Sequence record: SRR20825006_1644
DNA length: 53,680 bases
Direction: 5' to 3' (one strand)
Shown: positions 7,859-28,051 of the stretch, in pieces
Position numbering within the stretch: the stretch's first letter is position 1
Layout of the letters: every line of letters starts with the position of its first letter
Notes under the pieces: model-generated
Databases searched by the model: none
What the model was told of the DNA's origin: nothing
Seen by the model: the letters and a program-made list of their open reading frames with translations, nothing else
Position numbers and translations under genes: made by a program

Positions 7859-7873
7859 TAGGAATTTTTCCTA
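7859..7873. promoter_or_regulatory. Palindromic regulator box TAGGAA-TTT-TTCCTA upstream of the PepSY gene
   Basis: Perfect 6-3-6 inverted repeat matching boxes at 23794, 25751 and 25848; lies 17 nt from a minus-strand TAAACT (7836-7841), i.e. at the -35 position. Confidence 0.65.
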
Positions 7874-7915
7874 TACTCACATTTAACGACAGGTGATAGA
7901 AAAGAAAGTTTTTTT

Positions 7916-11031: not shown

Positions 11032-12355
11032 TATTTCTCTCTATGAACGGCATCCAGGCCCTAACTCTTACCCCTACGCCGGGGTTAGATTCAAACGCAA
11101 ACTGGCCCCCCATACTCTCGACCCGCTCCCGCATGCCCAGAATACCGAACCCCTCTCCATCAGTTGAACCGCCGACCCCATCATCCTCGACCCTGACAAG
11201 TACTTGTTCCTGCCCTTTGATGATATGCCGCCTCACCGTCACCCTGGCTTTGCCTGCCTCTGAATGGCGGACGACGTTGGTCAGACACTCCTGAACGATG
11301 CGATAGACATGAATCGCTACCTCCTCATCCAGCCAGTCCACTGCCTCGTCATAATTAAGATCGATTTCCAGCGAGGGATGCCGACGCTGCCATTCAGTGA
11401 CCAAATCCGTCAGGGTGGCAGCCAGCCCGAGATCACTCAGACTCAATGGATGCAGGGTACGCATCATGGAACGAACCACGACCGCCAGATGATTACAGAT
11501 ATCAATAATTGAATCGGCAATCTCGTTAATTCTGGCCTGCGGCTGCTTGGTGGCTACGGCCATTGCTTTCACAGCAGTCAGCGACTGTCCCATTTCGTCA
11601 TGCAGTTCCCGTGACATGGTCTGCCGTTCATTTTCCTGAATATGCATGGTATGTCTGGCAAGTGCCTGGTTGTTCTGTCTGGCGGTGTTTAACGCCTCTG
11701 AGAGGTTATTAACTTCAGCAGCAATCGCATCAAACTCGCTGATTTTAAAATTAGGTAGTTTTTTACCGTACTCACCGCTCTCTACCCTTCTGAGACCAGC
11801 GAGAATGGCATGCACACTTCTCAGCATTGACTGAAACACGATATTGATGGCAATAAAAATGACTGTCATCATCAATACAATTGACCAGAAAAAAGCCAGT
11901 GATTCGCTCCAGGCTTCAGCAATTTCATCTATCGGATCAGCACGAATCAGAATGGTTTTGGTTGTGCCGTCCATCAGACGAATATCGTAACTGGCTGACG
12001 GATAATCAGTTGTCACGGCCATTTTGAACCAGGCTGGTGGCATCTCCTCCTGTTCTTCTGTCGTTTCATCTGATAGCCACTCACTTTCAGTACCGTCATC
12101 ATTCACCAGACTGATGTGAATGTGCCGTGTTTGCTGAATGGTGCTGAGCTGACGCATCCAATGCTGCTCACTGACCATGCGATTGGCCGGGTAACTGAAG
12201 CTCAGATCAATCATCTGCAAAGCCAGATTAAAGGAAGAATTAATTTCCTTTTCTACCGACTGGCGGGCCTGCCAGATGGCCATCAGCCCACCAATGATCA
12301 AAATCAACACAACTGAGAGAACAATCCTAGCATTGATCAGGCCTCGTAAACTCAT
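11021..12355 (-). CDS. NarX-type sensor histidine kinase, MoxY/MxaY/MxcQ-like
   Basis: Two TM segments around a periplasmic domain resembling LapD/MoxY_N (MSLR...ARQSVEKEINSS), then HAMP, HisKA_3 (SRELHDEMGQSLT) and HATPase (QECLTNVVRH, DDGVG, GFGILGMRER). Confidence 0.88.
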   Translation of the reverse strand: MSLRGLINARIVLSVVLILIIGGLMAIWQARQSVEKEINSSFNLALQMIDLSFSYPANRMVSEQHWMRQLSTIQQTRHIHISLVNDDGTESEWLSDETTEEQEEMPPAWFKMAVTTDYPSASYDIRLMDGTTKTILIRADPIDEIAEAWSESLAFFWSIVLMMTVIFIAINIVFQSMLRSVHAILAGLRRVESGEYGKKLPNFKISEFDAIAAEVNNLSEALNTARQNNQALARHTMHIQENERQTMSRELHDEMGQSLTAVKAMAVATKQPQARINEIADSIIDICNHLAVVVRSMMRTLHPLSLSDLGLAATLTDLVTEWQRRHPSLEIDLNYDEAVDWLDEEVAIHVYRIVQECLTNVVRHSEAGKARVTVRRHIIKGQEQVLVRVEDDGVGGSTDGEGFGILGMRERVESMGGQFAFESNPGVGVRVRAWMPFIERNNDE

Positions 12356-12361
12356 TGAAAC

Positions 12362-14605
12362 CTACCTGAAACCATTAATGTCACTCATCATATCGTCAAA
12401 TGGCTGGTCTGATACCAGATAGATCATTGATGAGGCATCATCACTGCCAACAGGCCCCAGTCGCCCGCTGTCCATCGCCGAAGCAAGCCAGCTTCCATTA
12501 AGCTCTTCACGTTTCAGTTCAATGACCTTGTCCGAACGGTTAAATAAAGAGACGGCAGTCACGTAGACATTGTGACGTCGCCAGCTCTCCAGCGGCACCG
12601 TTTTAATGGCGGGTTCCGCAAACAATCCTGCAGCAACCGGAATGGCTCTGAGTGATTCATAAGCACTGTCTTCTGCCCGTTGCACATCCGGCGATCTGAT
12701 TTTTTGAGCCGCATAATTGGTCATGTCACGGAAGGCTTCGGCCTGATAGGGTTGCGGGATGATTTCACTCTCCTCTGCCGCTTTATCCACGTTAATAAAC
12801 TTATTATCAAACTCCTGTGACTGCGGGTGCTTCTGATTGTAGTCACGATAAAAGCGATTTTCTGTGGTACGCAGTGATTCACTGTCCTCCGGCACATTCA
12901 TCACCCGGGGGGTAATCAGGAGCACGGTCTCGGTTTCCTGTTCACTCTCTGACGTTGATCGGAACACCCTTCCCAGTACAGGAATTTCACTGAGAATTGG
13001 TACCTTGCGTTCATTCTTGTTGGTACTGGTTCTGATAAGACCGCCGACTGCGACAGTCAGGCCATCTTTGGCCATGACCGTACCTGTCAATCTGGCTGTG
13101 TCTACCGTATCTACCGGTAGATTCTGAACCGAACCGGTTCCATCTGTTATCGGTACTGTGCCGCCTCCGGGGTTAACTGTGGAATTTTCCTGTTCGATTA
13201 AGAGTTCCACGGTTTCATCACCGTTGATTCTTGGCGTGATCCTAAGTGTAATACCAATATCTTCACGATTGATAATCGCCTGCACATAAGAAGGTTGAAC
13301 GACCACACCGTTATCAATGATCGCGGGGAAGAAGTCGAAACCTTCCGTTAATAAGGTTTCTTCACCGATAAACAGCTCGGCCTGACGGTGATTCGACGCG
13401 ACAATCATCGGATTAGAAAGCACCCGGATACGGTTATTCTCTTCCAGGAACTGCAGGTTGGCTCTTAGGCGGCTGTTCAAAAACTCATACACCAAGGTGC
13501 CGTTATTCAAGAGCGCATTATTACCTAACAGCGTGGGTTGCTGGGATTCATTAGCACCACTTGGTTGAATACTGAAATTGAAAATGGAGTTGAAATCTTC
13601 CCCCAGAATCACGCTCAAAATGCGCATCTCCAGCATGACCTGGGGAACAGGAATATCCATCCTGTCGATCAATTGTCTGATGCCTTTGAGCACAGACTTA
13701 TCGTCCGAACGCACCACCAGCATATTGTGTTCGTTATTGACCGTCACATAAATAGGCTGGGATTGAACCGTCGCTTGCTGCAGGGCTTCCTGGCTGACAT
13801 TTCTGCTGCCGGACTGCTCAAGCGCGGCAGCGATTTGTTCGATTTGATCGACCGTCAAGTCATCGCCTTCGAGCTGAGCGCCTGATTGTGTCAGATTGTT
13901 TTGTCCAAAATTGCTTCTGCTACTTCTGCCGCGACTGGAACTGCTCCGGTTGGAACGGGTATTTCTGACTGTGCTATTACCGCCACGAACACTACTAAAA
14001 CCGCCACCCCGGTTCAGGCCACTCGCAGCACTACCATTCCCGGTTCCGAAGCTATTCGATGCCGGCGGTAAGCCGTAGGATAAAATCACCCGCTGACCAA
14101 ACAGATCCTCAATGGCCTGAGCAATAATCAGGACATTGGCATTCAGTAAACGGAAGATTTCAATATTTTCACTCTCGCGAACAATCAGATCTTTGCTGTA
14201 CTGTTCACGGGTCATTATCCGGAATGTGTCGGTATCATCATCATAGCGATACCACAGATCACTGATACGACTGATGGATTTGACGGCATCCAGGACAGTC
14301 ACATTTTTAAGATGAATGGTGACCTGTTTCTGTGCCGCTTCCGGCGTAGCGATGATATTCTGGCGACTCAGCTCCGACAGCGTCCGAACCACATCACTGA
14401 TATTACTACCGGTAAATTCGACCTCTTTAATTCGTGTCGTATTATCCGGGTTGTCTAGAACAGGTCGAGCCGGTATCGGTTGCGGGCGCTCTGCAATGAA
14501 AGGCTGATTAGCAGCAGCCCGGTCTTGCGTTTCAGCCGACACCGGGCTGACAACCATCAGGCCCGCGAGTAAAAAGCTTTTTTTTATTGATTTCATATAA
14601 CTCAT
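12362..14605 (-). CDS. Secretin (GspD/PilQ family) with C-terminal DUF3438-like extension
   Basis: Signal peptide, N-domains and secretin core (QVMLEMRI, LSNPMIVASNHRQAELFIG, GITLRITPRIN, VGGLI, KVPILSEIPVLGRVF, LLITPRV), followed by about 170 extra residues. Confidence 0.9.
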   Translation of the reverse strand: MSYMKSIKKSFLLAGLMVVSPVSAETQDRAAANQPFIAERPQPIPARPVLDNPDNTTRIKEVEFTGSNISDVVRTLSELSRQNIIATPEAAQKQVTIHLKNVTVLDAVKSISRISDLWYRYDDDTDTFRIMTREQYSKDLIVRESENIEIFRLLNANVLIIAQAIEDLFGQRVILSYGLPPASNSFGTGNGSAASGLNRGGGFSSVRGGNSTVRNTRSNRSSSSRGRSSRSNFGQNNLTQSGAQLEGDDLTVDQIEQIAAALEQSGSRNVSQEALQQATVQSQPIYVTVNNEHNMLVVRSDDKSVLKGIRQLIDRMDIPVPQVMLEMRILSVILGEDFNSIFNFSIQPSGANESQQPTLLGNNALLNNGTLVYEFLNSRLRANLQFLEENNRIRVLSNPMIVASNHRQAELFIGEETLLTEGFDFFPAIIDNGVVVQPSYVQAIINREDIGITLRITPRINGDETVELLIEQENSTVNPGGGTVPITDGTGSVQNLPVDTVDTARLTGTVMAKDGLTVAVGGLIRTSTNKNERKVPILSEIPVLGRVFRSTSESEQETETVLLITPRVMNVPEDSESLRTTENRFYRDYNQKHPQSQEFDNKFINVDKAAEESEIIPQPYQAEAFRDMTNYAAQKIRSPDVQRAEDSAYESLRAIPVAAGLFAEPAIKTVPLESWRRHNVYVTAVSLFNRSDKVIELKREELNGSWLASAMDSGRLGPVGSDDASSMIYLVSDQPFDDMMSDINGFR

Positions 14606-15039
14606 CTTAAAACGCGTATACGACCCAATGTTCCGGTCTCAATCGTGATACTCAGGCGGGAAATCTCGGAAATACGAATTGCATTGGCAGGTTGCCGAGG
14701 ATCGATGTTGATCTCGTCCCCTTCTCGCACCATAAAAACGCCTTTTCCCGTGATCTCAAGCAATGCAAGCTGTTCTTGCGCCCCTTCAGGCGTGACAAAA
14801 CCTCTGAGCCGCATCTGGGGTATTTTGATATCAATATCATCGGGAGCAGGCCGAAAACCAAACGCATCAGAATCAATATTGGCCACTGTTCCGGCTTGTT
14901 CATACATCAAGGCACTGGGCGAGAATGGATCACGGATGAATGTTCTATCCGCACTGTTGGCCTGGGACAGGTCGTTGGCAGAAACCACGGTGATGACAGG
15001 TAATAAACTTGCCATCATTATTTTTATAAAAAATTTCAT
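14602..15039 (-). CDS. Exported PilP/GspC-HR-like assembly protein
   Basis: Signal peptide, RDPF motif and beta-rich C-terminus (LRGFV...ALLEI...VREGDEI); immediately upstream of the secretin. Start set at MKFFIK after an AGGA Shine-Dalgarno. Confidence 0.6.
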   Translation of the reverse strand: MKFFIKIMMASLLPVITVVSANDLSQANSADRTFIRDPFSPSALMYEQAGTVANIDSDAFGFRPAPDDIDIKIPQMRLRGFVTPEGAQEQLALLEITGKGVFMVREGDEINIDPRQPANAIRISEISRLSITIETGTLGRIRVLR

Positions 15040-15055
15040 TATGCTTTCCTGCTGG

Positions 15056-16270
15056 TTATGCTGCGAGGGCAAATAGCGCCTGAAAAAAGGCGTAGTAAAC
15101 AAACCCAACCATGCCACCAATCACCAGGATCATGGCTGGCTCGATCATTGCTGAAAGTCGTTTAATACCTATTTCAAGTAAGTTTTGATAATAAATGCCC
15201 AACTCCTGTTGAATTCGATCCAGGGAACCGGTTCTTTCCCCAATAGCGATCATGTGCGTTACCAGAGACGGCATCTGTGGATGCTGAATACTACTGGCAA
15301 GATCACGACCAGACATGACGCTATTTGACGCCTGCTTCAGCTTGTCTGAATAAATCTTGTTCGCTATCAGGTCTGCCGTTATTTTCAATGTGTCAAAAAT
15401 GGTAATACCGCTTCGCATCAGGATAGAAGAAGCCCAATTCAGTTGAGCCATAGAACCGAAAACGATCAGCTTCCCAAACACAGGTACGCTAAGGAGGACA
15501 CGATCAATCCAGCGGCGACCTTTATAAGTCCTGTAGGTAATAAATATGAGGATGATGATGGCGATGCTGACACCAATGATGGTGAGCCCGTTCTCTCTGA
15601 GAAAGGCAGCGCCATCGATCAGTGCCTGGGTCGAATCCGGCAGACGTTTGCCCCGCCCTTGGATAAACTGAGCAAATTTGGGAATAATCATCACGACCAT
15701 AAACACTGCCACACCAATCGCGGCAAGAATCACCACAACTGGATAAATCATCGCGTTAATCATTTGTTTACGTAGTTGCGATTTCTTTTCCAGATGAATC
15801 GCCAGCCGCTCCATGATGACATCCAGTTCACCGGTACTTTCACCGGCAACAACCAGGTTGATGGCGATATTGGGAAATACATCTGGATGTTTACCCAGTG
15901 CCGAGGACAAAGATTGTCCGGCTTCAATATCACGATGCATTTTTCGCAATGCCAGGTTCAGCCGTGGGCTACTCACTTGCGTTGCTGCAAGTTGTAGACA
16001 CTCAGCCAACGGAAGGCCTGCTCTGAGCATGAAGGCCATTTGTCTGTAAAAGAAAATAAGGGCATCCGTGGAAACCGAACGCTGGGTCGCATACCAGTCA
16101 CTGAAATTTTCTTCACCCAGAAAACCACTCCGGCGTCTTTCTTTGATATCAAGAACACGCAGACCTTCGGTGCGTAATGCCTGAGCAACAGCATTGGTAT
16201 TGTCAGCCTGCATTTTGCCTGAAAGCTCTTCACCGGTTCGGCTCAGTGCCTGATAAGCAAACATGGGCAT
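15056..16270 (-). CDS. Inner-membrane platform protein (GspF/PilC family)
   Basis: FAYQA, RQMAFMLRAGLPL, AGESTGELD, AMIYP, GERTGSLD and IEPAMI motifs. Confidence 0.93.
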   Translation of the reverse strand: MPMFAYQALSRTGEELSGKMQADNTNAVAQALRTEGLRVLDIKERRRSGFLGEENFSDWYATQRSVSTDALIFFYRQMAFMLRAGLPLAECLQLAATQVSSPRLNLALRKMHRDIEAGQSLSSALGKHPDVFPNIAINLVVAGESTGELDVIMERLAIHLEKKSQLRKQMINAMIYPVVVILAAIGVAVFMVVMIIPKFAQFIQGRGKRLPDSTQALIDGAAFLRENGLTIIGVSIAIIILIFITYRTYKGRRWIDRVLLSVPVFGKLIVFGSMAQLNWASSILMRSGITIFDTLKITADLIANKIYSDKLKQASNSVMSGRDLASSIQHPQMPSLVTHMIAIGERTGSLDRIQQELGIYYQNLLEIGIKRLSAMIEPAMILVIGGMVGFVYYAFFQALFALAA

Positions 16271-16271
16271 C

Positions 16272-17915
16272 TCAGCTCACCTCCGCTGTGTCATAACGTT
16301 TAAACACGGCAACATCACGAACCTCATCCAGGGTGGTGAGCCCTCTTAATACTTTTTCGCAGCCGTCTTCCCACATAAATTTCAGCGCTTTACCCGCATT
16401 CGCCTCTAAGGTTTCCTCATCAGCGCCTTTTGACACCATCCTGGCGAGCCGCTCATTGAACCATAAGGTTTCGAACAGACCAAGGCGTCCCCTGAAGCCC
16501 TGTCCCTGACAAACTGCGCAGCCCACAGGTTCAAAAATTTCAACCTCGTCTTCCACCCCCAGTAACACGCGCTCGTCCTCATTAGCTGGTCTTGCTTTAG
16601 CACAATGACGACAAAGACGTCTGACAAGACGCTGGGCAATCACTGCTGTCATGGTGGAACCAATCAGAAAGGGTTCACAACCAATATCTACCAGACGAGT
16701 CACAGCACTGACGGCATTGTTGGTATGCAGGGTAGAAAATACGAGGTGACCCGTCATCGCCGCTTTAACCGCAACATCAGCTGTTTCAGAATCACGAATC
16801 TCACCCACCATGAGAACATCCGGGTCATGTCGAAGCAGAGAACGCAAAGCATCGGCAAAATTGATTTTGGGGCCGGTCTGTATTTGCGAAATACCATCGA
16901 TGACATATTCGATCGGGTTTTCAACCGTCATGATATTAATATCAGGATGGTTGATTTCCTGTAGTGCCGCGCACAAGGTTGTCGATTTACCGCTTCCGGT
17001 CGGACCGGTCAGCAAAATCATGCCATAAGGTTTACGAATGGCCTGCTTGAACTCGAGCAGATCATTTTCCAGAAAGCCAAGATCAGTCAGGGTCAAACTG
17101 CTACTCTCACTGCCTAATAAACGCATGGTGATCCGTTCACCAAGTCGGGTAGGCGCAGTCGCTACACGAATGTTGAACTCCATACCGACCGGTGCCGCAA
17201 GATGATAGGAAAAGCCGCCATCTTGGGGCATCCGTTGTTCAGATATATCCAGGCCTGACAATACTTTCACCCTGGAAATCAAGCCTGCCGCCACAGACTG
17301 ATCGGCGTCCAATGGATAATCAGTCAACTTACCATCAACCCTGAAACGGATTCGTAGTCCCTCTTCCTCAGTCATCAAATGGACGTCTGAAGCCCGGTTG
17401 AGATAGGCGTCTCTGAGAACATGATCCAAGACAGCCACCAAGTCTGTCTCTGAGGCACTACTCTCATTGGCCTGAGCCACGGCCGTATTGGCTAGAACTT
17501 TTTTTACAACCAGACGGATACGCTCAGGATCACTCATCGTGACCGGCAGGGCATCACCGACCAGTCGCAGTGCAGAATCAATAGATACCCGATCAGTTGG
17601 ATCACTGATAACCAGCATATCTTCGCCAGCCACAGTCATGACCAGCATTTGCTTGCGGTTGATCAGACTGGATGGCAGTTTTTTAGTCAGCACTGAATTC
17701 AGTTTCGCATCATTCAGGTCAACAAATTGAATACCTTGCTCTTCAGCCAATGCCCGATGCATTGCCGATACAGGCAAACGATAATGTGCCAGTAATTTTG
17801 ACACTAAAGGCACACGTTCTCTTCTGGCAATCAGACGCAGCTGTTCCACGGTCGATTCTTCAATCAGCCCAGTTTGTACCCCTGCCCTTATCAGTTGTTC
17901 ATCTCTGACAGCCAT
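16272..17915 (-). CDS. Assembly ATPase (GspE/PilB family)
   Basis: ASDVH, RFRVDG, Walker A GPTGSGKST, LRHDPDVLMVGEIRD, TGHLVFSTLHTN and tetracysteine CRHC...CAVC. Confidence 0.95.
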   Translation of the reverse strand: MAVRDEQLIRAGVQTGLIEESTVEQLRLIARRERVPLVSKLLAHYRLPVSAMHRALAEEQGIQFVDLNDAKLNSVLTKKLPSSLINRKQMLVMTVAGEDMLVISDPTDRVSIDSALRLVGDALPVTMSDPERIRLVVKKVLANTAVAQANESSASETDLVAVLDHVLRDAYLNRASDVHLMTEEEGLRIRFRVDGKLTDYPLDADQSVAAGLISRVKVLSGLDISEQRMPQDGGFSYHLAAPVGMEFNIRVATAPTRLGERITMRLLGSESSSLTLTDLGFLENDLLEFKQAIRKPYGMILLTGPTGSGKSTTLCAALQEINHPDINIMTVENPIEYVIDGISQIQTGPKINFADALRSLLRHDPDVLMVGEIRDSETADVAVKAAMTGHLVFSTLHTNNAVSAVTRLVDIGCEPFLIGSTMTAVIAQRLVRRLCRHCAKARPANEDERVLLGVEDEVEIFEPVGCAVCQGQGFRGRLGLFETLWFNERLARMVSKGADEETLEANAGKALKFMWEDGCEKVLRGLTTLDEVRDVAVFKRYDTAEVS

Positions 17916-17924
17916 GGAAAACCT

Positions 17925-18581
17925 TTAAAGCGCTAAAATCATTTCAGTCTTAAGCATTTGGGAACTGCCCCTGAAGGGCGAGATTTCCAGTTTATCGATA
18001 TTCAGACGAATGACCGTGACTTGATAAGGAAGCTCATCGAGACCATGAATGAAGCGCCTTAGAGCGAGATAACTGCCATCGACTTCGAGGCGTTGCAGTG
18101 GTCGCTGAAACATCGACCCGGGGGACATACGTGTAATCCAACCGGTGGTGACGGGTGGAATGATTTCGTTGTCATCATTTCCACGCCGGTTGTTGTTTTT
18201 AAGTGGCTGCGGGCGCAAAGCCTCATTGACCCTAATCCTGATGCCACTATCACGAGCCAGTTCAGAAATCTTAACCTTCAATTCCTGTGAATCGACCGGA
18301 GCCAACTGCTGTTCGATCTGTACCGCGCTCTCGCGAATCGCATCGAGGGCTTTTTGCTGATCCTCCAGCTCCCGTTTGATTTCATCTATCCCCTCTTGTG
18401 GTTCAGTCGGAATTTCCATCTTGGCTAGGCGATTCAGCGTCGCATCTTTTTGCTGGTCAAGACTCTGTATGTTCTCCAGTCGAGGCTCGAAACGCAGAAG
18501 ACCATAACCACCAAGAACAATGACCAGTAGTATAATGCCGGCAAGTGCGCGTTCCCGATTATTGAGCTGTTTCAGTTTCAT
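17925..18581 (-). CDS. PilO/GspM-like alignment protein
   Basis: LNNRER followed by a single TM, coiled coil and ferredoxin-like C-terminus (GSYLALRRFIHGLDELP). Confidence 0.7.
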   Translation of the reverse strand: MKLKQLNNRERALAGIILLVIVLGGYGLLRFEPRLENIQSLDQQKDATLNRLAKMEIPTEPQEGIDEIKRELEDQQKALDAIRESAVQIEQQLAPVDSQELKVKISELARDSGIRIRVNEALRPQPLKNNNRRGNDDNEIIPPVTTGWITRMSPGSMFQRPLQRLEVDGSYLALRRFIHGLDELPYQVTVIRLNIDKLEISPFRGSSQMLKTEMILAL

Positions 18582-20335
18582 GCTTGTTTATCCTCAACTG
18601 CAGATTGGGGAATCACACGCACCAAACTCATTGAGACCGAGTAACCCGCCAGGTTCATCGGGCCGGTTTTTTCTGCCACCTGAATATCTCTCACTTCCAT
18701 ATCCCATGCAGCAACAGAAAGCTTCATATTCTGCACAAACTCCTGAGCTGCACTCTCTGTGAGCGCCCAGGCATCAATATTGAAATTATCGGTTTCCACA
18801 ACCCCAGGCTTGTTGAGCGGCGTAGCAGCAGGCTGTACGGTAGCACGACGGCCCATTTCATCAACACGACTAACGATAATCTGTTCGTTGATATTGTTCT
18901 GCAGTACCCCCAGGATGGCTTGTACCAGTAGCGCTCTTTCTGGGAGCGACTGACCGAAAAACTCGAGTCTGGCTTCCATCCGTCGCTGGCTTTCTTTTTG
19001 TTCTTTCAGCTCGGCTTTTTGCTTATCAATCGCTTCACGTTGCTTTTTGATGCGATCCACCGCCGTATCCAGCACCTCGGCCCGCTCATCGATCTCCGCT
19101 TTTTCTTTGCTGATAGCCGCATATTGGACCGACATAGTGACTTCAGAAATAACGATCAGGACCAGCATCGCTGCCACTAAAGCGGCGGCTTGTGTTTCAG
19201 TTCGATGCCAGGTTGGCGGCAAGGGGCCGCCCGGCCTCACGGAACTGATTTTTCTGGCCCCTTTCAGACCAAAAAAGAGTCTTCCGGCAGCAAACATGCC
19301 CGGAGACAACCCATCTCTGTCATCGAACATGACAAGGTCTGGCTCACTGGCGAGTGCCGAGCCCAGACTGCCGCGAAGACCTGGCAAGCTCTCTGGGGGC
19401 GCAGCCAGCACTACACCGGGATGCTGGGTATTCTCAGCATGGAAAACCTCCAGGCAGGCATCCAGCATAGACGCACTGCGGTTGACGTAATGCTGAACGG
19501 AAACAATATGATCCCGTTTCAGGTGGGAGGAGGTGGTAATGAACTCGGTAGTTTCCAGTAAGACAAGATGTTTTTCTGCGCGATCGATCAGCGCTACGCT
19601 GTTACCTGTCAGCGGCATAAGACCGTCCAGTTGAAGCTTGTAGTCCTGACAGAGCTCTTGCCACTTACTGAGCACAGATTGATGGGTCGCTGTGGTCAGC
19701 CAGTTCCACACGCCAGGAGCATCATCGACTTCTCCCTGTGCCGACCATCCACACTGGACCTCATCATCTTCCCCCCGGAGCCAGTCCTGAACCACAAAAA
19801 GTGACTGCGCCTGTTCACGTGTCACATAACCAAGCTCCAAGGCCACTTCACCAAACCGCCTACCGCGCTCGCCTTTTATGACTTCCTGTTTCAGCTGTTT
19901 CTGTGCCTGATTAATTTCCAGCACCTGCTCTGGTGACAGCATGCCGTGAGACTCCATCAACTGTCCCAGCGTCCACTGCAACTGATGTTGCATTAAAAGC
20001 GGTTCGACTTCCCAGCGAATCAACTCATGCATTTGATTGATAGGCTTGGGCTTTTTGGGTGATACGGGCAGTTCAACCAACGCAGACATCACTGATGGTG
20101 TCAGCACGATGATATGCTTTCCTTGCCAGCCCTGGGTTCTTAGAGAACTCAGAATCTGACTGAAAGCCACAGCCGGATCAATACTTTCTGAACTTGCTGT
20201 CGCCTGAACCTGGAGCTTTTTGCCCGCCTTGTTGAACACCGCAGCCTGCATCGACAGGCCCGTCCATTCACAGACCATGACGTTGTTCGGCCGCATTGCG
20301 CTTAATTTATCGGTCAGTTGTTTAAACTTCATCAT
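18578..20335 (-). CDS. PilM/PilN (GspL-like) fusion protein with inserted MshEN-like motif pair
   Basis: Cytoplasmic N-terminal part with PilM-like LP...ELIRWEVEPLL, one TM near residue 390, then coiled coil and PilN-like periplasmic end; operon position fits. Confidence 0.62.
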   Translation of the reverse strand: MMKFKQLTDKLSAMRPNNVMVCEWTGLSMQAAVFNKAGKKLQVQATASSESIDPAVAFSQILSSLRTQGWQGKHIIVLTPSVMSALVELPVSPKKPKPINQMHELIRWEVEPLLMQHQLQWTLGQLMESHGMLSPEQVLEINQAQKQLKQEVIKGERGRRFGEVALELGYVTREQAQSLFVVQDWLRGEDDEVQCGWSAQGEVDDAPGVWNWLTTATHQSVLSKWQELCQDYKLQLDGLMPLTGNSVALIDRAEKHLVLLETTEFITTSSHLKRDHIVSVQHYVNRSASMLDACLEVFHAENTQHPGVVLAAPPESLPGLRGSLGSALASEPDLVMFDDRDGLSPGMFAAGRLFFGLKGARKISSVRPGGPLPPTWHRTETQAAALVAAMLVLIVISEVTMSVQYAAISKEKAEIDERAEVLDTAVDRIKKQREAIDKQKAELKEQKESQRRMEARLEFFGQSLPERALLVQAILGVLQNNINEQIIVSRVDEMGRRATVQPAATPLNKPGVVETDNFNIDAWALTESAAQEFVQNMKLSVAAWDMEVRDIQVAEKTGPMNLAGYSVSMSLVRVIPQSAVEDKQA

Positions 20336-21402
20336 GGTTCAATATTCCAGCGGATTGGTCCGAGTTGCTGCCTGGGCAGGACCATTACCGTGTAAGGTGA
20401 GCTTGTCATTTCAGGGCAGCTTGTAGGCGGTGTTGCCGAGCTGTCGTCACAGCGGGTACTGACGATGTAATAACCTGCGGGCAATTTATCTGAAAACGCG
20501 GTTGAGGATGAGACAGCAACGGTATATTCATATATACCCCGTGCAGGAATGCTTGAACCCGGGGGGGTAAAAGTAAAATCACTGGCGTAGGCATTGGGAT
20601 CACCACTGCTTTTTGCCAACGTAACTGTCCACTCAAGACTGTTATCGAGATTTGATATGGCACTTGCTGCAGAGGTATTAACAAATCGAATATTGAAGCT
20701 ACTGGGGGCAAGCCAGTCATCTGCCACAATCAAATCGTCATTTCCCAAGGGCGGGTAGTCGTCGGCGGTAGAGCTCAGATCATAGCCGTCGCTGTAGAGA
20801 TAAAATATTTCTGCAGGTGGGTTAATCGGTGCAGTAATGGGTGCCGAATATTCGGTACCCGATTCAGCCAGTGTGACGGCCCAGCCATAATTGGGATCTG
20901 TCGGGTTGTTGCCATTCTGATAACCGTCTCTGAAACGTCGAACACCATCCTGCTCTGGATTAGTCTGGATATACGGACCATACCAGCCTGTGCGGACACC
21001 ACTTGCTGTGACTGTGGGCTTCAGCAATTCCAGCGATTCATCACAGGGCGAAATGTAAAAGCCGGGAGAGCTGGCGCTCAGAGTGAGATCAAAGGGCGAT
21101 GCGACAAGCTCTGCCAGACAATAGGGCAATCTGCCATTATCAACGACAAAGCCCGCCAATTCCGGCTGACCATTCACGACACGCTCCGTACTACGGATAA
21201 TCGCATCACGGATTATTGCCTGTCGACGCTGCGTTTCATTGAAATAGGCCTCATCCTGCTGACCTTCGGTGAACAATAAGCCAGCAGAGGCCAGAAGCCC
21301 CATCAGAAAAAGAACCAGAACTAACTCAAGTAGAGTAAAACCTTTTTGATAAGCTTGATTGAAATATCGCATGCGAGTCCTTTCAATCAGCGCATCAGGC
21401 AC
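20332..21402 (-). CDS. Large minor pilin/pseudopilin
   Basis: Class III signal QKG/FTLLELVLVLFLMGLLA; GWYGPYI motif. Confidence 0.85.
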   Translation of the reverse strand: MPDALIERTRMRYFNQAYQKGFTLLELVLVLFLMGLLASAGLLFTEGQQDEAYFNETQRRQAIIRDAIIRSTERVVNGQPELAGFVVDNGRLPYCLAELVASPFDLTLSASSPGFYISPCDESLELLKPTVTASGVRTGWYGPYIQTNPEQDGVRRFRDGYQNGNNPTDPNYGWAVTLAESGTEYSAPITAPINPPAEIFYLYSDGYDLSSTADDYPPLGNDDLIVADDWLAPSSFNIRFVNTSAASAISNLDNSLEWTVTLAKSSGDPNAYASDFTFTPPGSSIPARGIYEYTVAVSSSTAFSDKLPAGYYIVSTRCDDSSATPPTSCPEMTSSPYTVMVLPRQQLGPIRWNIEP

Positions 21403-22223
21403 AGGATAAGGTCATCGCCTTCGGCGATGCAGGGGTCATTGCCAGTGACCGGGTTGGCATCGTAATCAGGATCAATAACACCATCAGGGCCGGGGCTGAT
21501 AATCCGGGCAGTATCGGCTGGCAGAATATGATCAGCTGCTACAAATCCAGCATCTGAAGGCGTGAGACACTCATACAAATCACCGGTAACGTCATAGTTA
21601 TCACCGCCGCTGTTGACCAGGCATCGATAACGCGCACCATAAGTCAGTTCCGGGGCCAGCAGGATATAAGCATTTCCCCAGCTGTCAGTCAGCCCCTCTT
21701 TACTGATATATGCGCCATTCCAGCCTTGCTGCGTGCTGCTATTCCAGAGCAGGAAATCAAACGCTGCAATGTCGAAGGGAAATTGATTAAGCATCACCAG
21801 TGCGTTGGAGGCAACAGGTTCACCTGCACTATTGTTATAGTCTTCCTGACACCAATCCTGCCATGCGGCGGCATCTGACGGAACGGGCGTTAGATCAAAC
21901 CCGCTAGTAAAGTCGATGTGATTTTCATGGGCGTTAACGTCGTTGACGGTATTTGGACTGAAATCACCCTGGCGATAGACCATGCAGGGCAACTCACGAT
22001 TGTCACGACGAAACTGTAATAAGGCCTTTTGCAGCTCTGCCATTTCCAGTCGAGTCACATTCTCCCGGGCCTGGTCTTCATTGCCATCAAAAGCATTAAT
22101 AGCGGCAATACTGACGATACCCAGCAAAACGATGACAAGCAGAATTTCGACCAGTGTGAAACCGGTCTGATAACTAGATGAGAAATTTGCTTTGTTTGGT
22201 CGGTCAAACAATAAAAACCACAT
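21387..22223 (-). CDS. GspG-like pseudopilin with insertions
   Basis: QTG/FTLVEILLVIVLLGIV; GspG-type WNGAYI..DSWGNAY, SPGPDG and terminal GDDL. Confidence 0.85.
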   Translation of the reverse strand: MWFLLFDRPNKANFSSSYQTGFTLVEILLVIVLLGIVSIAAINAFDGNEDQARENVTRLEMAELQKALLQFRRDNRELPCMVYRQGDFSPNTVNDVNAHENHIDFTSGFDLTPVPSDAAAWQDWCQEDYNNSAGEPVASNALVMLNQFPFDIAAFDFLLWNSSTQQGWNGAYISKEGLTDSWGNAYILLAPELTYGARYRCLVNSGGDNYDVTGDLYECLTPSDAGFVAADHILPADTARIISPGPDGVIDPDYDANPVTGNDPCIAEGDDLILCLMR

Positions 22224-22348
22224 TTACTTGTTCCCGATAATAATTTTATTCAGTGACGTGTAACGCACACCCTCTTCAACGCTGCATATCATCCTGTTCA
22301 TACAAAACGTTCTGGCAATAAGATTTATTGACGCAACGTTCTAAGATT

Positions 22349-22374
22349 AAGAAAGGGCGGGCAAAGCCCGCCCC
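22349..22374 (-). terminator. Intrinsic terminator/attenuator after the major pilin
   Basis: Minus strand GGGCGGGC-TTT-GCCCGCCC-TTTCTT. Confidence 0.8.
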
Positions 22375-22397
22375 TGTTATGGCATCTCTATGCGAGA

Positions 22398-23399
22398 TTA
22401 TTGCTGAGCTTCAGACACCAGTTGGTCGATGTTTTTACCATCAGGAGAGACGATAGCAATCAGACGAATAGTTTCATTCCACTGCATTTCGTTTACATCA
22501 AAGTTAAATTCACCAGCTTGGAACAGACCGATGTAACGCGAATAGTGAGTTTCTGGGTTAACTTCAGTGTCTTCATCACCAGTGTTTCGTACATAAGTTG
22601 GTGATTGAGCGATTGCAACATTACTGAAAGTGGTAGATGCTGCAGCATCACCACCAAAGCCTAATGCAATCAGGACATGGCATTCGTCACCTTCTAATGC
22701 GTCACCATACTGGTTCTGCAGGTTGTTACCAGATACAGTCACAGTAGTATCAAATGCATTTGCTGGGTAATCTACCAGGGCAGTAGCTGCACCACCTGCT
22801 TGACAGTTGTCGTTAGGAACAACAGCAAATCTGGCAGGTAAATCACCATCCTCTATTTCGACCTCAGCAGAGTCACCGGTACTCTCGTTGTGGAAACGGT
22901 TTGGTGCTTGATCCCCATTTGGCGTGCCACCAGCGTTCACGACTTGCAGTTCTTCAATGCCAGACTCTTCAAGCATTTCGATCATTGCATCACCTTTACC
23001 GCTATCACCAGATACACCAGGTGTCCATGCAGCGAGGAAAGAATCCATGATTGGCGCTCTGAAAGTCAATTGTGAACCCGCAGAATCCACCAAATTATCC
23101 CATTGGTTAGGGTAAACATTTTCAACCGCACGATAAGTACGGATAGCACGGTCAATAGTCGCTGCGGCGTTACCGGCAGAGGCGGCTTCTGCTGACTGAC
23201 CCACATCTTCGTAGGCAATCAGCGCACCCGTGGCCAAAATGGCGATCAGGGTGATAACAACCAGCAGCTCCAACAGGGTGAAGCCTTTTTCTTTACCTTG
23301 CAGGCTTTGTGCTTTGTTACGCAGTTTTGCGTCTTTGATGACTGACAAATCCGCTTTACGGAATTTGGCAATCGCCGATTTCATTTGGTTAATATTCAT
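22398..23399 (-). CDS. Probable major pilin (large, acidic, long leader)
   Basis: EKG/FTLLELLVVITLIAILA class III signal after a 39-aa leader; first pilin of the cluster and followed by a terminator. Confidence 0.85.
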   Translation of the reverse strand: MNINQMKSAIAKFRKADLSVIKDAKLRNKAQSLQGKEKGFTLLELLVVITLIAILATGALIAYEDVGQSAEAASAGNAAATIDRAIRTYRAVENVYPNQWDNLVDSAGSQLTFRAPIMDSFLAAWTPGVSGDSGKGDAMIEMLEESGIEELQVVNAGGTPNGDQAPNRFHNESTGDSAEVEIEDGDLPARFAVVPNDNCQAGGAATALVDYPANAFDTTVTVSGNNLQNQYGDALEGDECHVLIALGFGGDAAASTTFSNVAIAQSPTYVRNTGDEDTEVNPETHYSRYIGLFQAGEFNFDVNEMQWNETIRLIAIVSPDGKNIDQLVSEAQQ

Positions 23400-23521
23400 T
23401 TATATCTCTCTCAGGGTTTGAGCCTCAGCCACCCCTAGCGGCCTGTTGGACATCGGGTTAAAAAGTTGTTTCAGGATGTGACCCGCTCACACTCTGTTGC
23501 CGTCCGGATTAATTATTTTTG

Positions 23522-23728
23522 TCAGGAAGCCGCTCCCTGCTCACCCGGGAAATCGATCACATAACGGTATTGTTTACCGCAATGCAAAATGACCTCTTTC
23601 TGACGGCGTTTAAGAATACGAACTTCAACACGAATATCGCCATAACCGTCATGCGCAAGAATATCGTCAACCAGTTCCAGCAGTTTGGCTTTAACAGGCT
23701 GTTGGTCAGTGTCGACTTTGGCATTCAT
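23522..23728 (-). CDS. 68-aa hypothetical protein leading the filament operon
   Basis: GGAGAG Shine-Dalgarno; helix then HDGYG then beta strands; first ORF after the boxed promoter. Confidence 0.7.
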   Translation of the reverse strand: MNAKVDTDQQPVKAKLLELVDDILAHDGYGDIRVEVRILKRRQKEVILHCGKQYRYVIDFPGEQGAAS

Positions 23729-23764
23729 GAAATGACTCTCTCCGCTTGAACTTCGTTGACAGTG

Positions 23765-23812
23765 ATAGTAGGCGAATCAGGAAGGCTTCCCTATAGGAAT
23801 AATTCCTGAAAT
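23765..23812 (-). promoter_or_regulatory. Filament-operon promoter: box (23794-23808) plus -10 TACTAT (23765-23770)
   Basis: TAGGAA-TAA-TTCCTG with a 23-nt gap to TACTAT on the minus strand; a second degenerate box CAGGAA-GGC-TTCCCT lies at 23778-23792. Confidence 0.7.
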
Positions 23813-23921
23813 TCAAAACCGCACTTTTCCGGCCGCATTCAGCACAGATTCCCATCGATAAAAGGCGATCCTGCTGTTTGCATAAGTAAGCTGGCTGTGT
23901 GCTGAAAACGGCATCGTGTGC

Positions 23922-25685
23922 TTATTCCGCTGGTTTATATGGATCCTGCAGAATAATCAGGATAGGCAGCAGCTGGTTCTGCTGTTTTTTAATGACCTGC
24001 GCCAATACAAAACGATGATAGACCTCGCGGTATTCCGGGAACTGCTTGATTGCCATACGAATCATCTTCTGCGCTTCAACCGGTTTATTATTCATCGCCA
24101 GCAGGTAGGCATGGGTATAGGTTTCAACACGACCCGGCCAGTTTTCAATGACTTGCTGGCTGATAATTAGCTTATCTTTCAACAGCCCCGGCTGGTTGGG
24201 CAGTACTCGGACCAGGAAATTATCAGCAACCGGGGTAAAGACCGAGGTTTCCCTGAGCTGGTAGAGCTTTTCAAGGTTTTTATCGATTTCCGACTGCGGC
24301 AAACCTTCTTCACGTAATGACGTAAGCGTGGTTTCCAGCTGATGGTAGTTGGTCTGCAAACTGCCCAGAGACCAGACGGCAAAGATAAATATCACCAGAA
24401 AGAAAACCGGTGCCAGATTAAACCGGACCTGAAGCGGACGCTCAGAACCCAGGCCCAATAGCAGGCTGGCTATCGCCAGGAAGGTCATGTACCACAGTGG
24501 ATACTCCAGCATGCTGTGAATGCCGATTACCGACAACAGTGCCAGCAGCCACCAACGCTCGGCCGTCATTTGGCTCTGAAACTGCTCTCTGAACCAGTAC
24601 AGCATACCGATCGTCAGAATCAGCGCGCCGACGATGCCGGTTTCTGCAAGCAACTGCAGAATCAGATTATGGGCATGGTGCCAGAGTCCTTTCAGGGACG
24701 GATAGGATTCGGTAATGGAAAAGTTATACCAGGAGAACTCTGCCCAGCCGGCGCCAAGCCAAGAGTGCTGTTTGAATAAAAGCCAGGCTTGCTCAATCAG
24801 GATTAAACGGCTCGACTCGCTGCCCATGGTCTGCACCAGGCGTTCTGCAGGCATTTTGGCGGGTTCCAGAAAGGCAAGCAGCGGAACGATGAACTGGGCA
24901 GCGATAAAGCCCGGAATCAACCAGAGCAGCATGATCGGTTTTATCGCTGTTGGCTGATTGTATGAAAACGTTCTGGCTAGTAACCAGCCGCCTACAGAGA
25001 GTAATGCCACATAAAGGATAGCCATCCGCTGACCACCCTGGGCAAAGCCTATCAGAATCAGGGCGCTGATCAGGACAGTGATGACGGTATTGATCCGCCC
25101 AGTGAGCCGGAGGTATAGCAGTGAAGCCAGCCCCAGCGCGAGATAGTTGGAAAAATGGTTAGCCTGGCCGATATTGCCGGATTTGCCACCCAGTATCCAT
25201 TTGGCAAACACACTCTCATCAGGAAGAAGTTTGCCAATAGGCAGCAGAATCATGATGAGCGTAGCACCCACCACAAAAGCCCAGGCAATCGTCGGTACGA
25301 TTCTTTCCAATGACAGAGAGTGCTTTAGGTTGGCGGCAAGAATCATCAGTAATGCTGTCATCCCGAGATAAAGCATAGCGACAAATTGATTCTGCCAGTA
25401 ATCCGGCACTCCAAGGGCTACCTGTAAACCCAGAACGACAATTAAGCCCAGTGGAACAAAAGTTACTGGCGGGATTTGAAGTTTTTCCTGTCTGTGACCA
25501 ATTAAAAAAAGGCTGGCGAATACCGCCAGTAATGCGGCAAACCACTCGTTGTAAAAACTGGCTATCGGTGGCATGTGATACGGGGACAAGAACGGCACCA
25601 CACACATCAATGCCAGCATGAAAATACTGAAACTGGCAATGAGTGAACGTGGTTTATCGTCGTAGGAAGTTGCTGCTGCCGTCAT
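23922..25685 (-). CDS. pglL: PglL-family O-oligosaccharyltransferase (pilin glycosylation ligase)
   Basis: Multi-TM protein; GNIGQANHFSNYL, Wzy_C HAHNLILQLLAETG and HSMLEYPLWY signatures. Confidence 0.85.
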   Translation of the reverse strand: MTAAATSYDDKPRSLIASFSIFMLALMCVVPFLSPYHMPPIASFYNEWFAALLAVFASLFLIGHRQEKLQIPPVTFVPLGLIVVLGLQVALGVPDYWQNQFVAMLYLGMTALLMILAANLKHSLSLERIVPTIAWAFVVGATLIMILLPIGKLLPDESVFAKWILGGKSGNIGQANHFSNYLALGLASLLYLRLTGRINTVITVLISALILIGFAQGGQRMAILYVALLSVGGWLLARTFSYNQPTAIKPIMLLWLIPGFIAAQFIVPLLAFLEPAKMPAERLVQTMGSESSRLILIEQAWLLFKQHSWLGAGWAEFSWYNFSITESYPSLKGLWHHAHNLILQLLAETGIVGALILTIGMLYWFREQFQSQMTAERWWLLALLSVIGIHSMLEYPLWYMTFLAIASLLLGLGSERPLQVRFNLAPVFFLVIFIFAVWSLGSLQTNYHQLETTLTSLREEGLPQSEIDKNLEKLYQLRETSVFTPVADNFLVRVLPNQPGLLKDKLIISQQVIENWPGRVETYTHAYLLAMNNKPVEAQKMIRMAIKQFPEYREVYHRFVLAQVIKKQQNQLLPILIILQDPYKPAE

Positions 25686-25721
25686 TGACTGATTCCCGCT
25701 GGGTAGTTTGAAAATCAGTCA

Positions 25722-25765
25722 ATCTTAGTGAGGCAATGACAAACAGGCACTAGGAAAAAATCCTA
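25722..25765 (-). promoter_or_regulatory. pglL promoter: box (25751-25765) plus -10 TAAGAT (25722-25727)
   Basis: TAGGAA-AAA-ATCCTA with a 23-nt gap to minus-strand TAAGAT. Confidence 0.65.
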
Positions 25766-25804
25766 TTTTGCTGCTTGTTCAAGTTCACATTATTGGGATG
25801 TTGG

Positions 25805-25820
25805 TGTGATCTGTCTCACA
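25805..25820. promoter_or_regulatory. CRP/Vfr-type site
   Basis: TGTGA-TCTGTC-TCACA, a perfect match to TGTGA-N6-TCACA. Confidence 0.6.
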
Positions 25821-25843
25821 ATTCCTTTTTGAACATGAACTAG

Positions 25844-25891
25844 ATTTCAGGAATTATTCCTATAGGTCTTCGGGGGTTATGGGGAAATAAT
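25844..25891 (+). promoter_or_regulatory. Plus-strand promoter: box (25848-25862) plus -10-like AATAAT (25886-25891)
   Basis: CAGGAA-TTA-TTCCTA with a 23-nt gap to AATAAT; 25844-25866 is the exact reverse complement of 23790-23812. Confidence 0.6.
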
Positions 25892-25896
25892 GAGAA

Positions 25897-26002
25897 TGAG
25901 ATTACTTAATAATCTCGCATTACTCGTCTGTCATGATGACAGCCCCTTAGAGGTCGGCTCTTGACTCTCACTGTGGGTGGCTAGCCACCCACAGTTATTT
26001 TT
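25897..26002 (+). ncRNA. Candidate ~105-nt small RNA (or short-peptide transcript)
   Basis: Boxed promoter upstream, several hairpins, and a terminator whose T-tail is on the plus strand where no gene is annotated. The 5' end is estimated. Confidence 0.55.
25970..26002 (+). terminator. Intrinsic terminator, plus-strand polarity
   Basis: ACTGTGGGTGG-CTAG-CCACCCACAGT followed by TATTTTT. Confidence 0.75.
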
Positions 26003-26332
26003 CTAGAACATGCCAAGCTGCAATTGCGCGGCTTCGCTCATCATGTCTTTGGTCCATTGCGGTTCCCAGACTAGTTCTACATGGGCTTTTTGAACGCCTG
26101 GGACCGACATCACGCGTGATTCAACATCACCCGGGAAAGATTGCGCTACCGGGCAGCCGGGCGCGGTCAGTGTCATATCGATATGGACATTGCCGGAGTT
26201 GCTGACTTCGATATTGTAGATCAGCCCGAGTTCATAGATGTTCACCGGAATTTCCGGGTCGTAGACGGTTTTAAGCACCTCAATCACATCTTCTTTAAGC
26301 TGTTCCGGGCTGACTTGGTATTGATCATTCAT
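26003..26332 (-). CDS. sufT: SUF Fe-S assembly protein (DUF59/SufT)
   Basis: VYDPEIPVNIYELGLIY, MTLTAPGCP and LVWEPQW motifs. Confidence 0.9.
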   Translation of the reverse strand: MNDQYQVSPEQLKEDVIEVLKTVYDPEIPVNIYELGLIYNIEVSNSGNVHIDMTLTAPGCPVAQSFPGDVESRVMSVPGVQKAHVELVWEPQWTKDMMSEAAQLQLGMF

Positions 26333-26345
26333 AAATCTGCCCTGC

Positions 26346-26792
26346 TTACTCTGTAGTTATCGAAACGTCATGATCGCTGTCCATGGCGGCATGCACGGTG
26401 TGCCATGACAAAGTGGCGCATTTGACCCGTGCCGGAAATTCCTTGACGCCGGCCAGCACTTCCAGTTTGCCGGAGAGCTCACCGCCCTCAGCTTCACCAG
26501 TCAGCGCTTTATGAACGTTGTCATAAAGCTTTTCCGCTTCTTCCATGGTTTTGCCTTTCAGAATCTCGGTCATCAATGACGCCGAAGCCACTGAAATCGC
26601 GCAGCCACTGCCCTGAAAGCTGACATCTTCGATCACACCGTCTTTCAGTTTGGCGTAGACCACCAGTGCATCACCACAAAGCGGGTTATTGCCATGCGCC
26701 ATATGATTGGCGTCAGCGATCTCGCGGAAATTACGCGGATTTTTCTTGTGATCCATGATCACTTGTTGATAGAGATCTCTTAAATCACTCAT
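26346..26792 (-). CDS. sufU: SufU/NifU-type sulfur-transfer protein
   Basis: LYQQVIMDH, NPLCGD, GCAISVASAS and RVKCATL motifs. Confidence 0.92.
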   Translation of the reverse strand: MSDLRDLYQQVIMDHKKNPRNFREIADANHMAHGNNPLCGDALVVYAKLKDGVIEDVSFQGSGCAISVASASLMTEILKGKTMEEAEKLYDNVHKALTGEAEGGELSGKLEVLAGVKEFPARVKCATLSWHTVHAAMDSDHDVSITTE

Positions 26793-28051
26793 CAGGCAAA
26801 CAGCTCCTGTGTGGTTTTGATGGCGTTGACCAGCGCATCAATTTCCTGCTCGGTGTTATAAAACGCAAACGAAGCACGCGCGGTTGCGGCAATACCGAAG
26901 AATTCCATTACCGGTTGCGCGCAATGATGGCCGGCACGAATCGCCACACCCTGCTGATCAAAAATAGTACCGACATCATGCGGGTGCACATCTTCAATCA
27001 TGAATGAGAGCACGCTGGCTTTGTTTTTGGCAGTACCGATAATGCGAATACCATCAATCGCTTCCAGTTTCGCTGTCGCCACTTCCAGCAGGTGATGTTC
27101 ATAGGCAGCCAGTTTCTCAATGCCTATCGCCTGCATATAATCAATCGCTGCGCCCAGACCGACAGCCCCGGCAATATGCGGTGTGCCCGCTTCGAATTTA
27201 TACGGCAGCGTATTGTATTCGGTATGGGTAAAGCTGACCGACAGAATCATATCGCCCCCGCCCTGCCACGGTGGCATGGCTTCAAGCAAAGCCTGCTTGC
27301 CGTAGAGCGCACCGATGCCGGTAGGTGCAAACATTTTGTGACCGGAGAAAACGTAAAAGTCACAGTCCAGATCCTGCACATCGACCGCGAGATGGGGCAC
27401 AGCCTGAGCTCCGTCAACCAGTACCGGAATCGATTTGGCTTTGGCCTGGCCGATCATGGCCTTAATCGGATTAATGGTGCCAAGCGCATTGGACACATGA
27501 CCGATAGCCAGGATTTTAGTGCGCTCATTGAGCAGACTGTCCAGGTCGGTCAGATCCAGTTCGCCGGATTCAGTCATCGGAATGACTTTCAGCTTGGCAC
27601 CGGTCTGTTCGCAAACCATCTGCCACGGAACAATATTGGCGTGATGCTCAATATGGCTAATCAGAATTTCATCACCCGGCTTGATCTGCGGACGGACAAA
27701 ACTCTGCGCCACCAGATTAATCGCTTCGGTGGCACCACGGACAAACACAATTTCCTTATCCGATTTGGCATTAAGAAAGCCACGGACTTTGTCCCGTGCG
27801 CCTTCATAGGCGTCGGTTGCACGCTGACTCAGACGGTGCACACCGCGGTGGACATTGGCATTATCTACACGATAATAAGCATCGACTGCTTCAATCACCT
27901 GAATCGGTTTCTGACTGCTGGCCGCATTATCAAGATAAGCCAGTGGGTTGCCGTTCACTTCCTGATTCAGAATCGGAAAGTCACGTCTTATCGCCTCGAC
28001 ATCAAAGTCAGCTTCAGGAAATGGCACAGCTTGTAATTCGGTTTGTGTCAT
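26792..28051 (-). CDS. sufS: Cysteine desulfurase SufS
   Basis: YLDNAASSQKP, FSGHKM and RAGHHCAQP motifs. Confidence 0.96.
   Translation of the reverse strand: MTQTELQAVPFPEADFDVEAIRRDFPILNQEVNGNPLAYLDNAASSQKPIQVIEAVDAYYRVDNANVHRGVHRLSQRATDAYEGARDKVRGFLNAKSDKEIVFVRGATEAINLVAQSFVRPQIKPGDEILISHIEHHANIVPWQMVCEQTGAKLKVIPMTESGELDLTDLDSLLNERTKILAIGHVSNALGTINPIKAMIGQAKAKSIPVLVDGAQAVPHLAVDVQDLDCDFYVFSGHKMFAPTGIGALYGKQALLEAMPPWQGGGDMILSVSFTHTEYNTLPYKFEAGTPHIAGAVGLGAAIDYMQAIGIEKLAAYEHHLLEVATAKLEAIDGIRIIGTAKNKASVLSFMIEDVHPHDVGTIFDQQGVAIRAGHHCAQPVMEFFGIAATARASFAFYNTEQEIDALVNAIKTTQELFA

Follow-up and report, generated by a model that had tools for sequence, protein, structure and literature searches.

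The window, the whole stretch of 53,680 nucleotides of sequence record SRR20825006_1644 that we analysed, contains an intergenic region (25686-26002) flanked by two genes that both lie on the minus strand, as the original prediction had noted: a pglL-like gene and sufT. Every feature listed in that prediction was found again at its place. The elements at the locus are as follows.

23922-25685, minus strand: pglL-like gene for a protein of 587 amino acids with Wzy_C, Wzy_C_2 and PglL_A domains (domain search)
25849-25864, plus strand: promoter box, the palindrome AGGAAT-T-ATTCCT (centre 25855) plus ATA; predicted LuxR/NarL-type response regulator site, centre at about -43
25886-25891, plus strand: predicted -10 hexamer AATAAT, beginning 31 bp from the box centre
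25890-25964, plus strand: 24-codon frame, ATG to TGA, judged not to be a gene
25898-26002, plus strand: predicted sRNA of ~105 nt, its start placed from the -10 hexamer, conserved to the T-tail
25898-25916, plus strand: hairpin 1, GAGAUUA/UAAUCUC; loop length varies, and one G-U pair is possible only in plus-strand RNA
25917-25927, plus strand: linker GCAUUACUCGU, single-stranded candidate seed, nearly invariant
25928-25942, plus strand: hairpin 2, CUGUCA/UGACAG; stem kept, loop variable, one pair changed on both sides in genome G077
25943-25949, plus strand: CCCCUUA, single-stranded candidate seed, opening energy about 2 kcal/mol
25950-25969, plus strand: hairpin 3, GAGGUC/GACUCUC; two pairs changed on both sides with pairing kept
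25970-26002, plus strand: terminator stem and T-tail, abutting the sufT stop codon (26003-26005)
26003-26332, minus strand: sufT, terminal gene of a sufR-sufBCDSUT cluster

Conservation and structure of the predicted RNA

A terminator scan placed a stem of 11 pairs, seven of them G-C, at 25970-25995 on the plus strand only, followed by the tail TATTTTT up to 26002, in agreement with the earlier description of a GC stem with a T-tail in plus orientation. When the same hairpin is read on the minus strand, GAGAGUCAAGAG comes next and there is no U-tail. Between 25000 and 27000 the scan returned five terminator-like sites, against 1.6 expected from shuffles. The folding energy of 25870-26003 is -51.2 kcal/mol (z = -5.4), with none of 200 shuffles equally stable.

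The original prediction had named lack of conservation as a ground on which it could fail; eight related genomes carry the element. A DNA search of 90 genomes of the order recovered it in seven (76-93% identity), and a covariance model built from eight sequences added the eighth carrier, G077, which also has the box in front. The model matches all nine sources at E ≤ 2e-12, and the stem-loop with its U-tail is conserved at the 3' end of all nine copies. Further model matches in G061, G050 and G044 were set aside; they have no box and look like terminators only. In the alignment, the box, the -10 hexamer, the RNA body and the terminator are conserved, the DNA before the box cannot be aligned, and neither can the DNA past the terminator where sufT is not adjacent.

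The consensus fold, from about 25898 to 26002, has four hairpins. In the nine-sequence alignment used for covariation (A3), which was itself fitted to the covariance model, 97.8% of the cells at paired positions form pairs. Four pairs show double-sided changes, against none in each of six slid controls, and the observed covariation score was reached by none of 500 shuffles. Among the changes, the top pair of the terminator covaries (GC in four copies, AU in three, GU in two). Covariation support is modest, because most pairs never vary. Three cells at two of the pairs are G-U combinations that would read C-A on the opposite strand, and therefore the plus strand is favoured. The single-stranded stretches are nearly invariant: CCCCUU is invariant in 9/9 copies, with the final base of CCCCUUA replaced by C in G071 alone, and the linker GCAUUACUCGU has the lowest opening energy of the RNA, 0.3-1.0 kcal/mol for 8-mers in the close homologue from genome G076.

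No known family covers the RNA. Searching the whole window against Rfam 15, the database check that had been suggested, gave no match at the gathering score, and at E ≤ 10 the interval 24500-27500 held three chance-level matches (E 5-10), none of them over the RNA body.

Judged by loci with close SufT relatives, the nearest named relatives are Methylophaga (SufT identity 74-75%). Two Methylophaga loci, L002 (genome G002) and L003 (G001), share a stretch of ~175 nt downstream of sufT on the opposite strand, which opens with GGAATTCCTCCTATA and closes in a terminator with a T-tail. Diverged, box-driven predicted RNAs with terminators thus stand beside sufT in Methylophaga and in other genomes that lack pglL at this place. 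The element is present at sufT without pglL and is therefore not tied to pglL.

Taken together, the conservation in eight related genomes and the pairs kept within the hairpins back the idea of a separate plus-strand sRNA gene of ~105 nt. We consider it very likely that the element encodes a conserved, independently transcribed non-coding sRNA, convergent with sufT, which would be a previously undescribed sRNA gene of marine methanol-using bacteria.

The promoter box and its regulon

The box of the proposed plus-strand promoter was confirmed, and its -10 hexamer lies at a distance that is constant among box sites. Three exact copies of GGAATTNNTCCTATA occur in the window (7861 plus, 23792 minus, 25850 plus); at up to two mismatches, 0.84 sites would be expected in a sequence of this length. 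Five relatives have 3-5 boxes per genome, in orthologous places. At the sRNA locus the box is invariant in an eight-sequence alignment and the DNA upstream of it diverges. The spacer between box and -10 is likewise poorly conserved, and conservation returns just past the -10, at the predicted start.

We compiled 42 distinct box sites, which are not independent because orthologous sites from related genomes are included. The pattern nAnnnT occurs at +31 from the palindrome centre in 29 of the 42 and at +32 in seven, with counts of 0-9 at the remaining offsets from 18 to 49. The genes behind these sites belong to at least five classes, and the spacer between box and -10 differs in sequence among the sites. 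Upstream of the box sites there is no shared -35 hexamer, and a sigma-70 scan of the plus strand at the sRNA locus returned no -35/-10 pair, as a promoter layout that needs an activator would lead one to expect. LuxR-type activators commonly bind a site near -42 that substitutes for the -35 contact. The present locus has the corresponding class II-like arrangement, a palindrome near -42 and a -10 hexamer without a -35, the palindrome centre standing 43 nt before the start placed here. Read from these features, box plus AATAAT is an activator-dependent promoter layout. Readings of the box as a Fur box or as a sigma-54, sigma-32 or phage-type promoter were dropped, because they account for the site less well than the fixed -10 at +31 does.

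The other box copies in the window and the candidate regulatory genes lie at the following positions.

7861-7875, plus strand: third box copy, facing the 3' end of a malic enzyme gene (7916-9610, minus strand)
10378-11031, minus strand: LuxR-type response regulator, candidate activator of the box (linkage and co-occurrence)
11021-12355, minus strand: sensor kinase with LapD_MoxY_N, HAMP and HisKA_3 domains (domain search)
23522-23728, minus strand: conserved ORF of 68 amino acids at the head of a pilus-like cluster
23792-23806, minus strand: second box copy, preceding the 68-amino-acid ORF and a T2SS/type-IV-pilus-like cluster

An orthologue of the regulator at ≥ 69% identity is present in 53 of the 90 genomes, and 39 of these 53 hold an exact box. 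Among the 37 genomes without an orthologue, 11 hold a box, mostly as single sites, and a control pattern likewise yields single sites in many genomes. The regulator orthologue has a box no more than 3 kb away in 22 members of the order. This linkage and the co-occurrence make the regulator at 10378-11031 the best candidate, and it is likely to be the activator of the box, with the MoxY-like kinase as its partner. Paralogous regulators (37-43% identity) could bind the box instead. A second kinase, encoded next to a methanol dehydrogenase gene in a relative, shares 29% identity with the window kinase from end to end (E = 2e-65); the regulator of that second pair is 37% identical to the window regulator.

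The 68-amino-acid ORF has no Pfam or NCBIfam family. Its core motif is HDG(F/Y)G-I-VE--ILKR-QKEVI-H-GKQYR, and across the order it always stands right behind the box; at nine further loci the box precedes the orthologous small ORF. The genes that follow encode three large pseudopilin-like proteins, a GspE/PilB-like ATPase, a PilC/GspF-like protein, a secretin, the kinase and the LuxR-type regulator. The T2SS/type-IV-pilus-like cluster (12362-25685, minus strand) adjoins the PglL-type O-glycosylation ligase. Its pseudopilin-like proteins are unusually large (278-356 amino acids), and its secretin carries a DUF3438 tail. Between the 68-amino-acid ORF and the first pilin-like gene, a palindrome, GTGTGAGCGGGTCACAT, is conserved at 23476-23492 (minus strand).

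At the third copy, at 7861, the +31 hexamer is weak (TAGAAA), and the A/U-rich terminator hairpin of the malic enzyme gene is its neighbour; this box may give rise to an antisense RNA, or its action may be on the opposite strand. The minus strand beside it (7790-7860) holds a conserved extended -10 (TGTTAAACT/TGTTATACT) and then a conserved GAGTTTGATCAT, which we take to resemble the 5' end of 16S rRNA.

Box sites in relatives extend this picture. Genome G067 has two boxes 58 bp apart in opposite directions, one leading to a predicted sRNA that ends against sufT and the other to the small ORF and then an ORF of 462 amino acids, with the regulator orthologue just downstream on the same contig. 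In G076 (L115), G070 (L108) and G071 (L099), a fourth box drives a second predicted sRNA of ~65 nt beside a tRNA gene, which holds a UUUUCCUCUAU stretch and a terminator. A gene for a TonB-dependent receptor lies behind a box in Methylophaga G001.

These genomes resemble those of methylotrophs, and each carries several PQQ methanol dehydrogenase genes. G056 and G073 have a second kinase-regulator pair, behind a box whose -10 at +31 is perfect. In G056 (L303, G056:C7), two MoxY-like kinase-regulator pairs stand in tandem with the box between them, and a PQQ methanol dehydrogenase gene comes immediately after the second pair; the tandem arrangement suggests a cascade of two-component systems. 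In G073 (L304, G073:C72) the first pair and the box are followed by a shorter frame for the second kinase, and the contig ends before any dehydrogenase gene. By coordinates, a box in G057 lies at the same distance after the paralogous regulator. G076 has no box beside its dehydrogenase genes.

As the same box precedes these other genes, the earlier description of the RNA as an arm of a regulon was fair, and on the evidence of its box the predicted sRNA is a member of a very small two-component regulon.

Proposed mode of action and competing readings

We propose the following mechanism. A dimeric LuxR/NarL-type response regulator, most likely that encoded at 10378-11031 and partnered with the MoxY-like kinase, would bind AGGAAT-N-ATTCCT centred near -43, replace the -35 element and bring RNA polymerase to the AATAAT -10 hexamer, giving a transcript from near 25898 to the intrinsic terminator at 26002. 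The sRNA would then pair in trans through AUUACUCG and CCCCUUA, both of which are conserved and predicted to be single-stranded. These two stretches are nearly invariant and the cheapest to open, as conserved accessible seeds would be. We hold action by base pairing in trans to be quite possible, with a confidence just short of even.

Targets were sought with the copy of the sRNA from G076 (93% identical), over the 86% of the complete G076 chromosome that lies outside 2.4-2.8 Mb. Gene calling by a simple ORF and codon-usage method gave 2288 genes, whose starts are approximate. A full-length duplex folding scan was dropped after a shuffled RNA gave equal energies, and 2287 start regions were instead scanned for duplexes in windows, with opening energies taken into account. 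The scores have a mean of -7.5, a standard deviation of 2.5 and a 1% quantile of -14.3 kcal/mol, and none rises above the tail: fliG comes 21st, the regulator 24th and the first pilin-like gene 40th of 2287, none of them an outlier. In the ranking of 47 within the window, the pilin-like gene comes second and the regulator fourth.

Three regions are retained as weak leads, namely the fliG initiation region, the loop of a hairpin in the 5' UTR of the pilin-like gene and the region upstream of the regulator. The fliG site comprises 14 bp with the AUUACUCG linker at -19 to -4; G056 and G070 have it unchanged, in G071 it is weaker, and G077 has lost it. The hairpin before the pilin-like gene (23427-23443, minus strand) has a GGGG-rich loop and a stem that covaries across seven genomes. 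By eye, its loop, (U/A)(A/G)GGG then G, is complementary over 6-7 bp to CCCCUU(A) in 7/7 aligned genomes.

Other candidates were rejected. The top 25 of the scan held a chemotaxis set (CheW, two CheA, CheY and FliG), and the theme was abandoned when the cheW, cheY and cheA2 sites proved not to be kept even in close relatives. Sites of the form AGAGGGGCUGA before a cysC-like gene and cysH were also rejected: the cysC-like gene occurs in only one of five relatives (32% identity), and the cysH site, which falls within coding sequence of the gene before it, is kept only in G073, not in G070, G071, G077 or G081. The sRNA also matches the ribosome-binding site before the 68-amino-acid ORF over 8 bp, but this match is not conserved. 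A perfect match of 14 nt at G076 192470 is not kept in other genomes. There, at 192470-192483, the minus-strand reading is identical over 14 nt to the seed region of the sRNA (GACAGCCCCUUAGA), in the spacer before a LysR-type gene whose neighbour across the spacer is presumably DUF2798-like.

Words complementary to CCCCUUA are not enriched near starts in G076, where AGGGGCTG has three of its 126 genome sites close to starts, about what the sequence fraction predicts; the genome-wide excess of such words comes from Lys-Gly-Leu codons. A search of 10 genomes for a conserved 15-nt complement elsewhere gave none. For the second predicted sRNA, the same kind of ranking in G076 placed a 16-nt perfect complement to the start region of a 60-amino-acid gene first of 2290; rank 23 of 2290 falls to one methanol dehydrogenase gene, whose ribosome-binding region contains a 10-nt complement of the CU-rich seed of this RNA.

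The main rival to trans pairing is a cis antisense role, in which the sRNA or its head-on transcription would control the 3' end or stability of the suf mRNA, or read-through from suf into pglL; we regard this as unlikely. What speaks for it is the terminator itself, whose T-tail serves the plus strand only, the minus strand continuing into GAGAGUCAAGAG. The suf operon, which lacks a U-tail on its own strand, may therefore read through the sRNA gene. Convergence with sufT is moreover kept across three strongly diverged types of RNA sequence, although this synteny could simply be inherited. One contig of 153 nt from the RNA-like run X17 spans 25946-26098 and so crosses the terminator into sufT, but a contig of this kind gives neither its strand nor its RNA origin. 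Conserved single-stranded stretches and hairpins are, by contrast, typical of trans-acting sRNAs, and no functional tie is seen between suf and the other genes that carry the box.

A reading without any separate RNA would make the hairpin the terminator of the suf operon and the box promoter or operator DNA for the minus-strand neighbours. The hairpin does abut sufT directly, and in four RNA or RNA-like runs no contig covers 25898-25945, although contigs cannot show starts, strands or absence; those from X15 and X16 cover suf genes only. The terminator is nevertheless oriented to the plus strand, and the box and the -10 face the same way with the spacing seen at protein-gene promoters. In addition, ~70 nt of structured sequence between the -10 and the terminator are conserved with their pairs kept, and the element remains where pglL is absent. 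We judge this reading improbable.

About as improbable is a protein-binding sponge like CsrB, RsmY or RsmZ under a GacA-type regulator. The very few targets of a LuxR/NarL-type regulator do appear to include sRNA genes here, and the box half-site presumably resembles GacA/LetA/RcsB-type boxes, which would suit such a role. However, 25898-26002 contains no GGA motif, and the RNA is short, with only two short single-stranded stretches.

That the RNA is a small-protein gene or a type I toxin-like mRNA can practically be dismissed: the 24-codon frame is open and partly hydrophobic in the window, but it is intact only there, since in 8/8 relatives it is either cut to 6-19 codons by 1-2 nt indels in the hairpin 1 loop or lacks the ATG. 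In the window, moreover, its ATG falls within the predicted -10 and hence before the point where the transcript is predicted to start. No other reading frame is shared among the relatives. The small peptide or dual-function RNA raised in the original prediction thus did not survive the comparison.

Comparison with known systems

Our literature searches brought up no paper on a native sRNA in Methylophaga and its relatives or in the regulation of methylotrophy. The present element would define a new sRNA family, with its promoter logic, for this group, and the box makes the small regulon of an uncharacterised MoxY-like two-component system readable from sequence. That regulon would comprise two sRNAs and a pilus/secretion-like cluster that includes a glycosylation ligase; some genomes would add a second sensor pair by a methanol dehydrogenase gene. 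By this route one could test how surface structures, and perhaps methanol oxidation, are coupled to sensing in abundant marine methylotrophs.

A link to methanol or lanthanide sensing would, if true, carry greater weight. The box drives a kinase-regulator pair by a methanol dehydrogenase gene in relatives, and the second predicted sRNA complements one dehydrogenase ribosome-binding region over 10 nt. For these reasons we entertain, as a doubtful reading, that in marine methylotrophs a MoxY/MxaY-type sensor cascade has the box regulon as its output. The two sRNAs would then form a link below the kinase and adjust methanol dehydrogenase and cell-surface or motility genes post-transcriptionally, the signal possibly being lanthanides or methanol.

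A close counterpart is RprA of Escherichia coli, an sRNA of ~100 nt that is activated by the NarL-family regulator RcsB. The two resemble each other in length (~100 nt), in their hairpins and intrinsic terminator, and in a promoter dependent, here by prediction, on a LuxR/NarL-type regulator, with a palindrome of GAAT/ATTC-like half-sites just before the -10. They differ in that there is no sequence or Rfam match, the host order is another one, and the box described here has a 6-1-6 layout with its centre near -43.

RsmY, RsmZ and CsrB, under GacA, UvrY or LetA, exemplify a two-component regulator with a tiny, sRNA-rich direct regulon. The likeness lies in the regulon, since two of about 4-5 boxes per genome drive predicted sRNAs here. 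The RNA itself differs: it lacks GGA motifs and is therefore not a CsrA/RsmA sponge. The proteins differ as well, the window regulator scoring 139 bits in the UvrY/GacA model against a cut-off of 280 bits and the window kinase, unlike BarA/GacS, being of the HisKA_3 type with a MoxY-like sensor domain.

The third comparison is with the kinase MxaY (MoxY) and MxaB-like regulators, which govern the lanthanide/methanol dehydrogenase switch. The cascade below the MxaY kinase is stated to be unresolved, and the portion of that paper available to us mentions no sRNA (PMC5018670). The window kinase carries LapD_MoxY_N, and the same box drives a paralogous pair that immediately precedes a methanol dehydrogenase gene in G056. 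The window kinase is, however, only 29% identical to its dehydrogenase-linked paralogue. The MoxY-type sensor domain and the box before the dehydrogenase-linked pair point to the MxaY/MxaB regulatory world.
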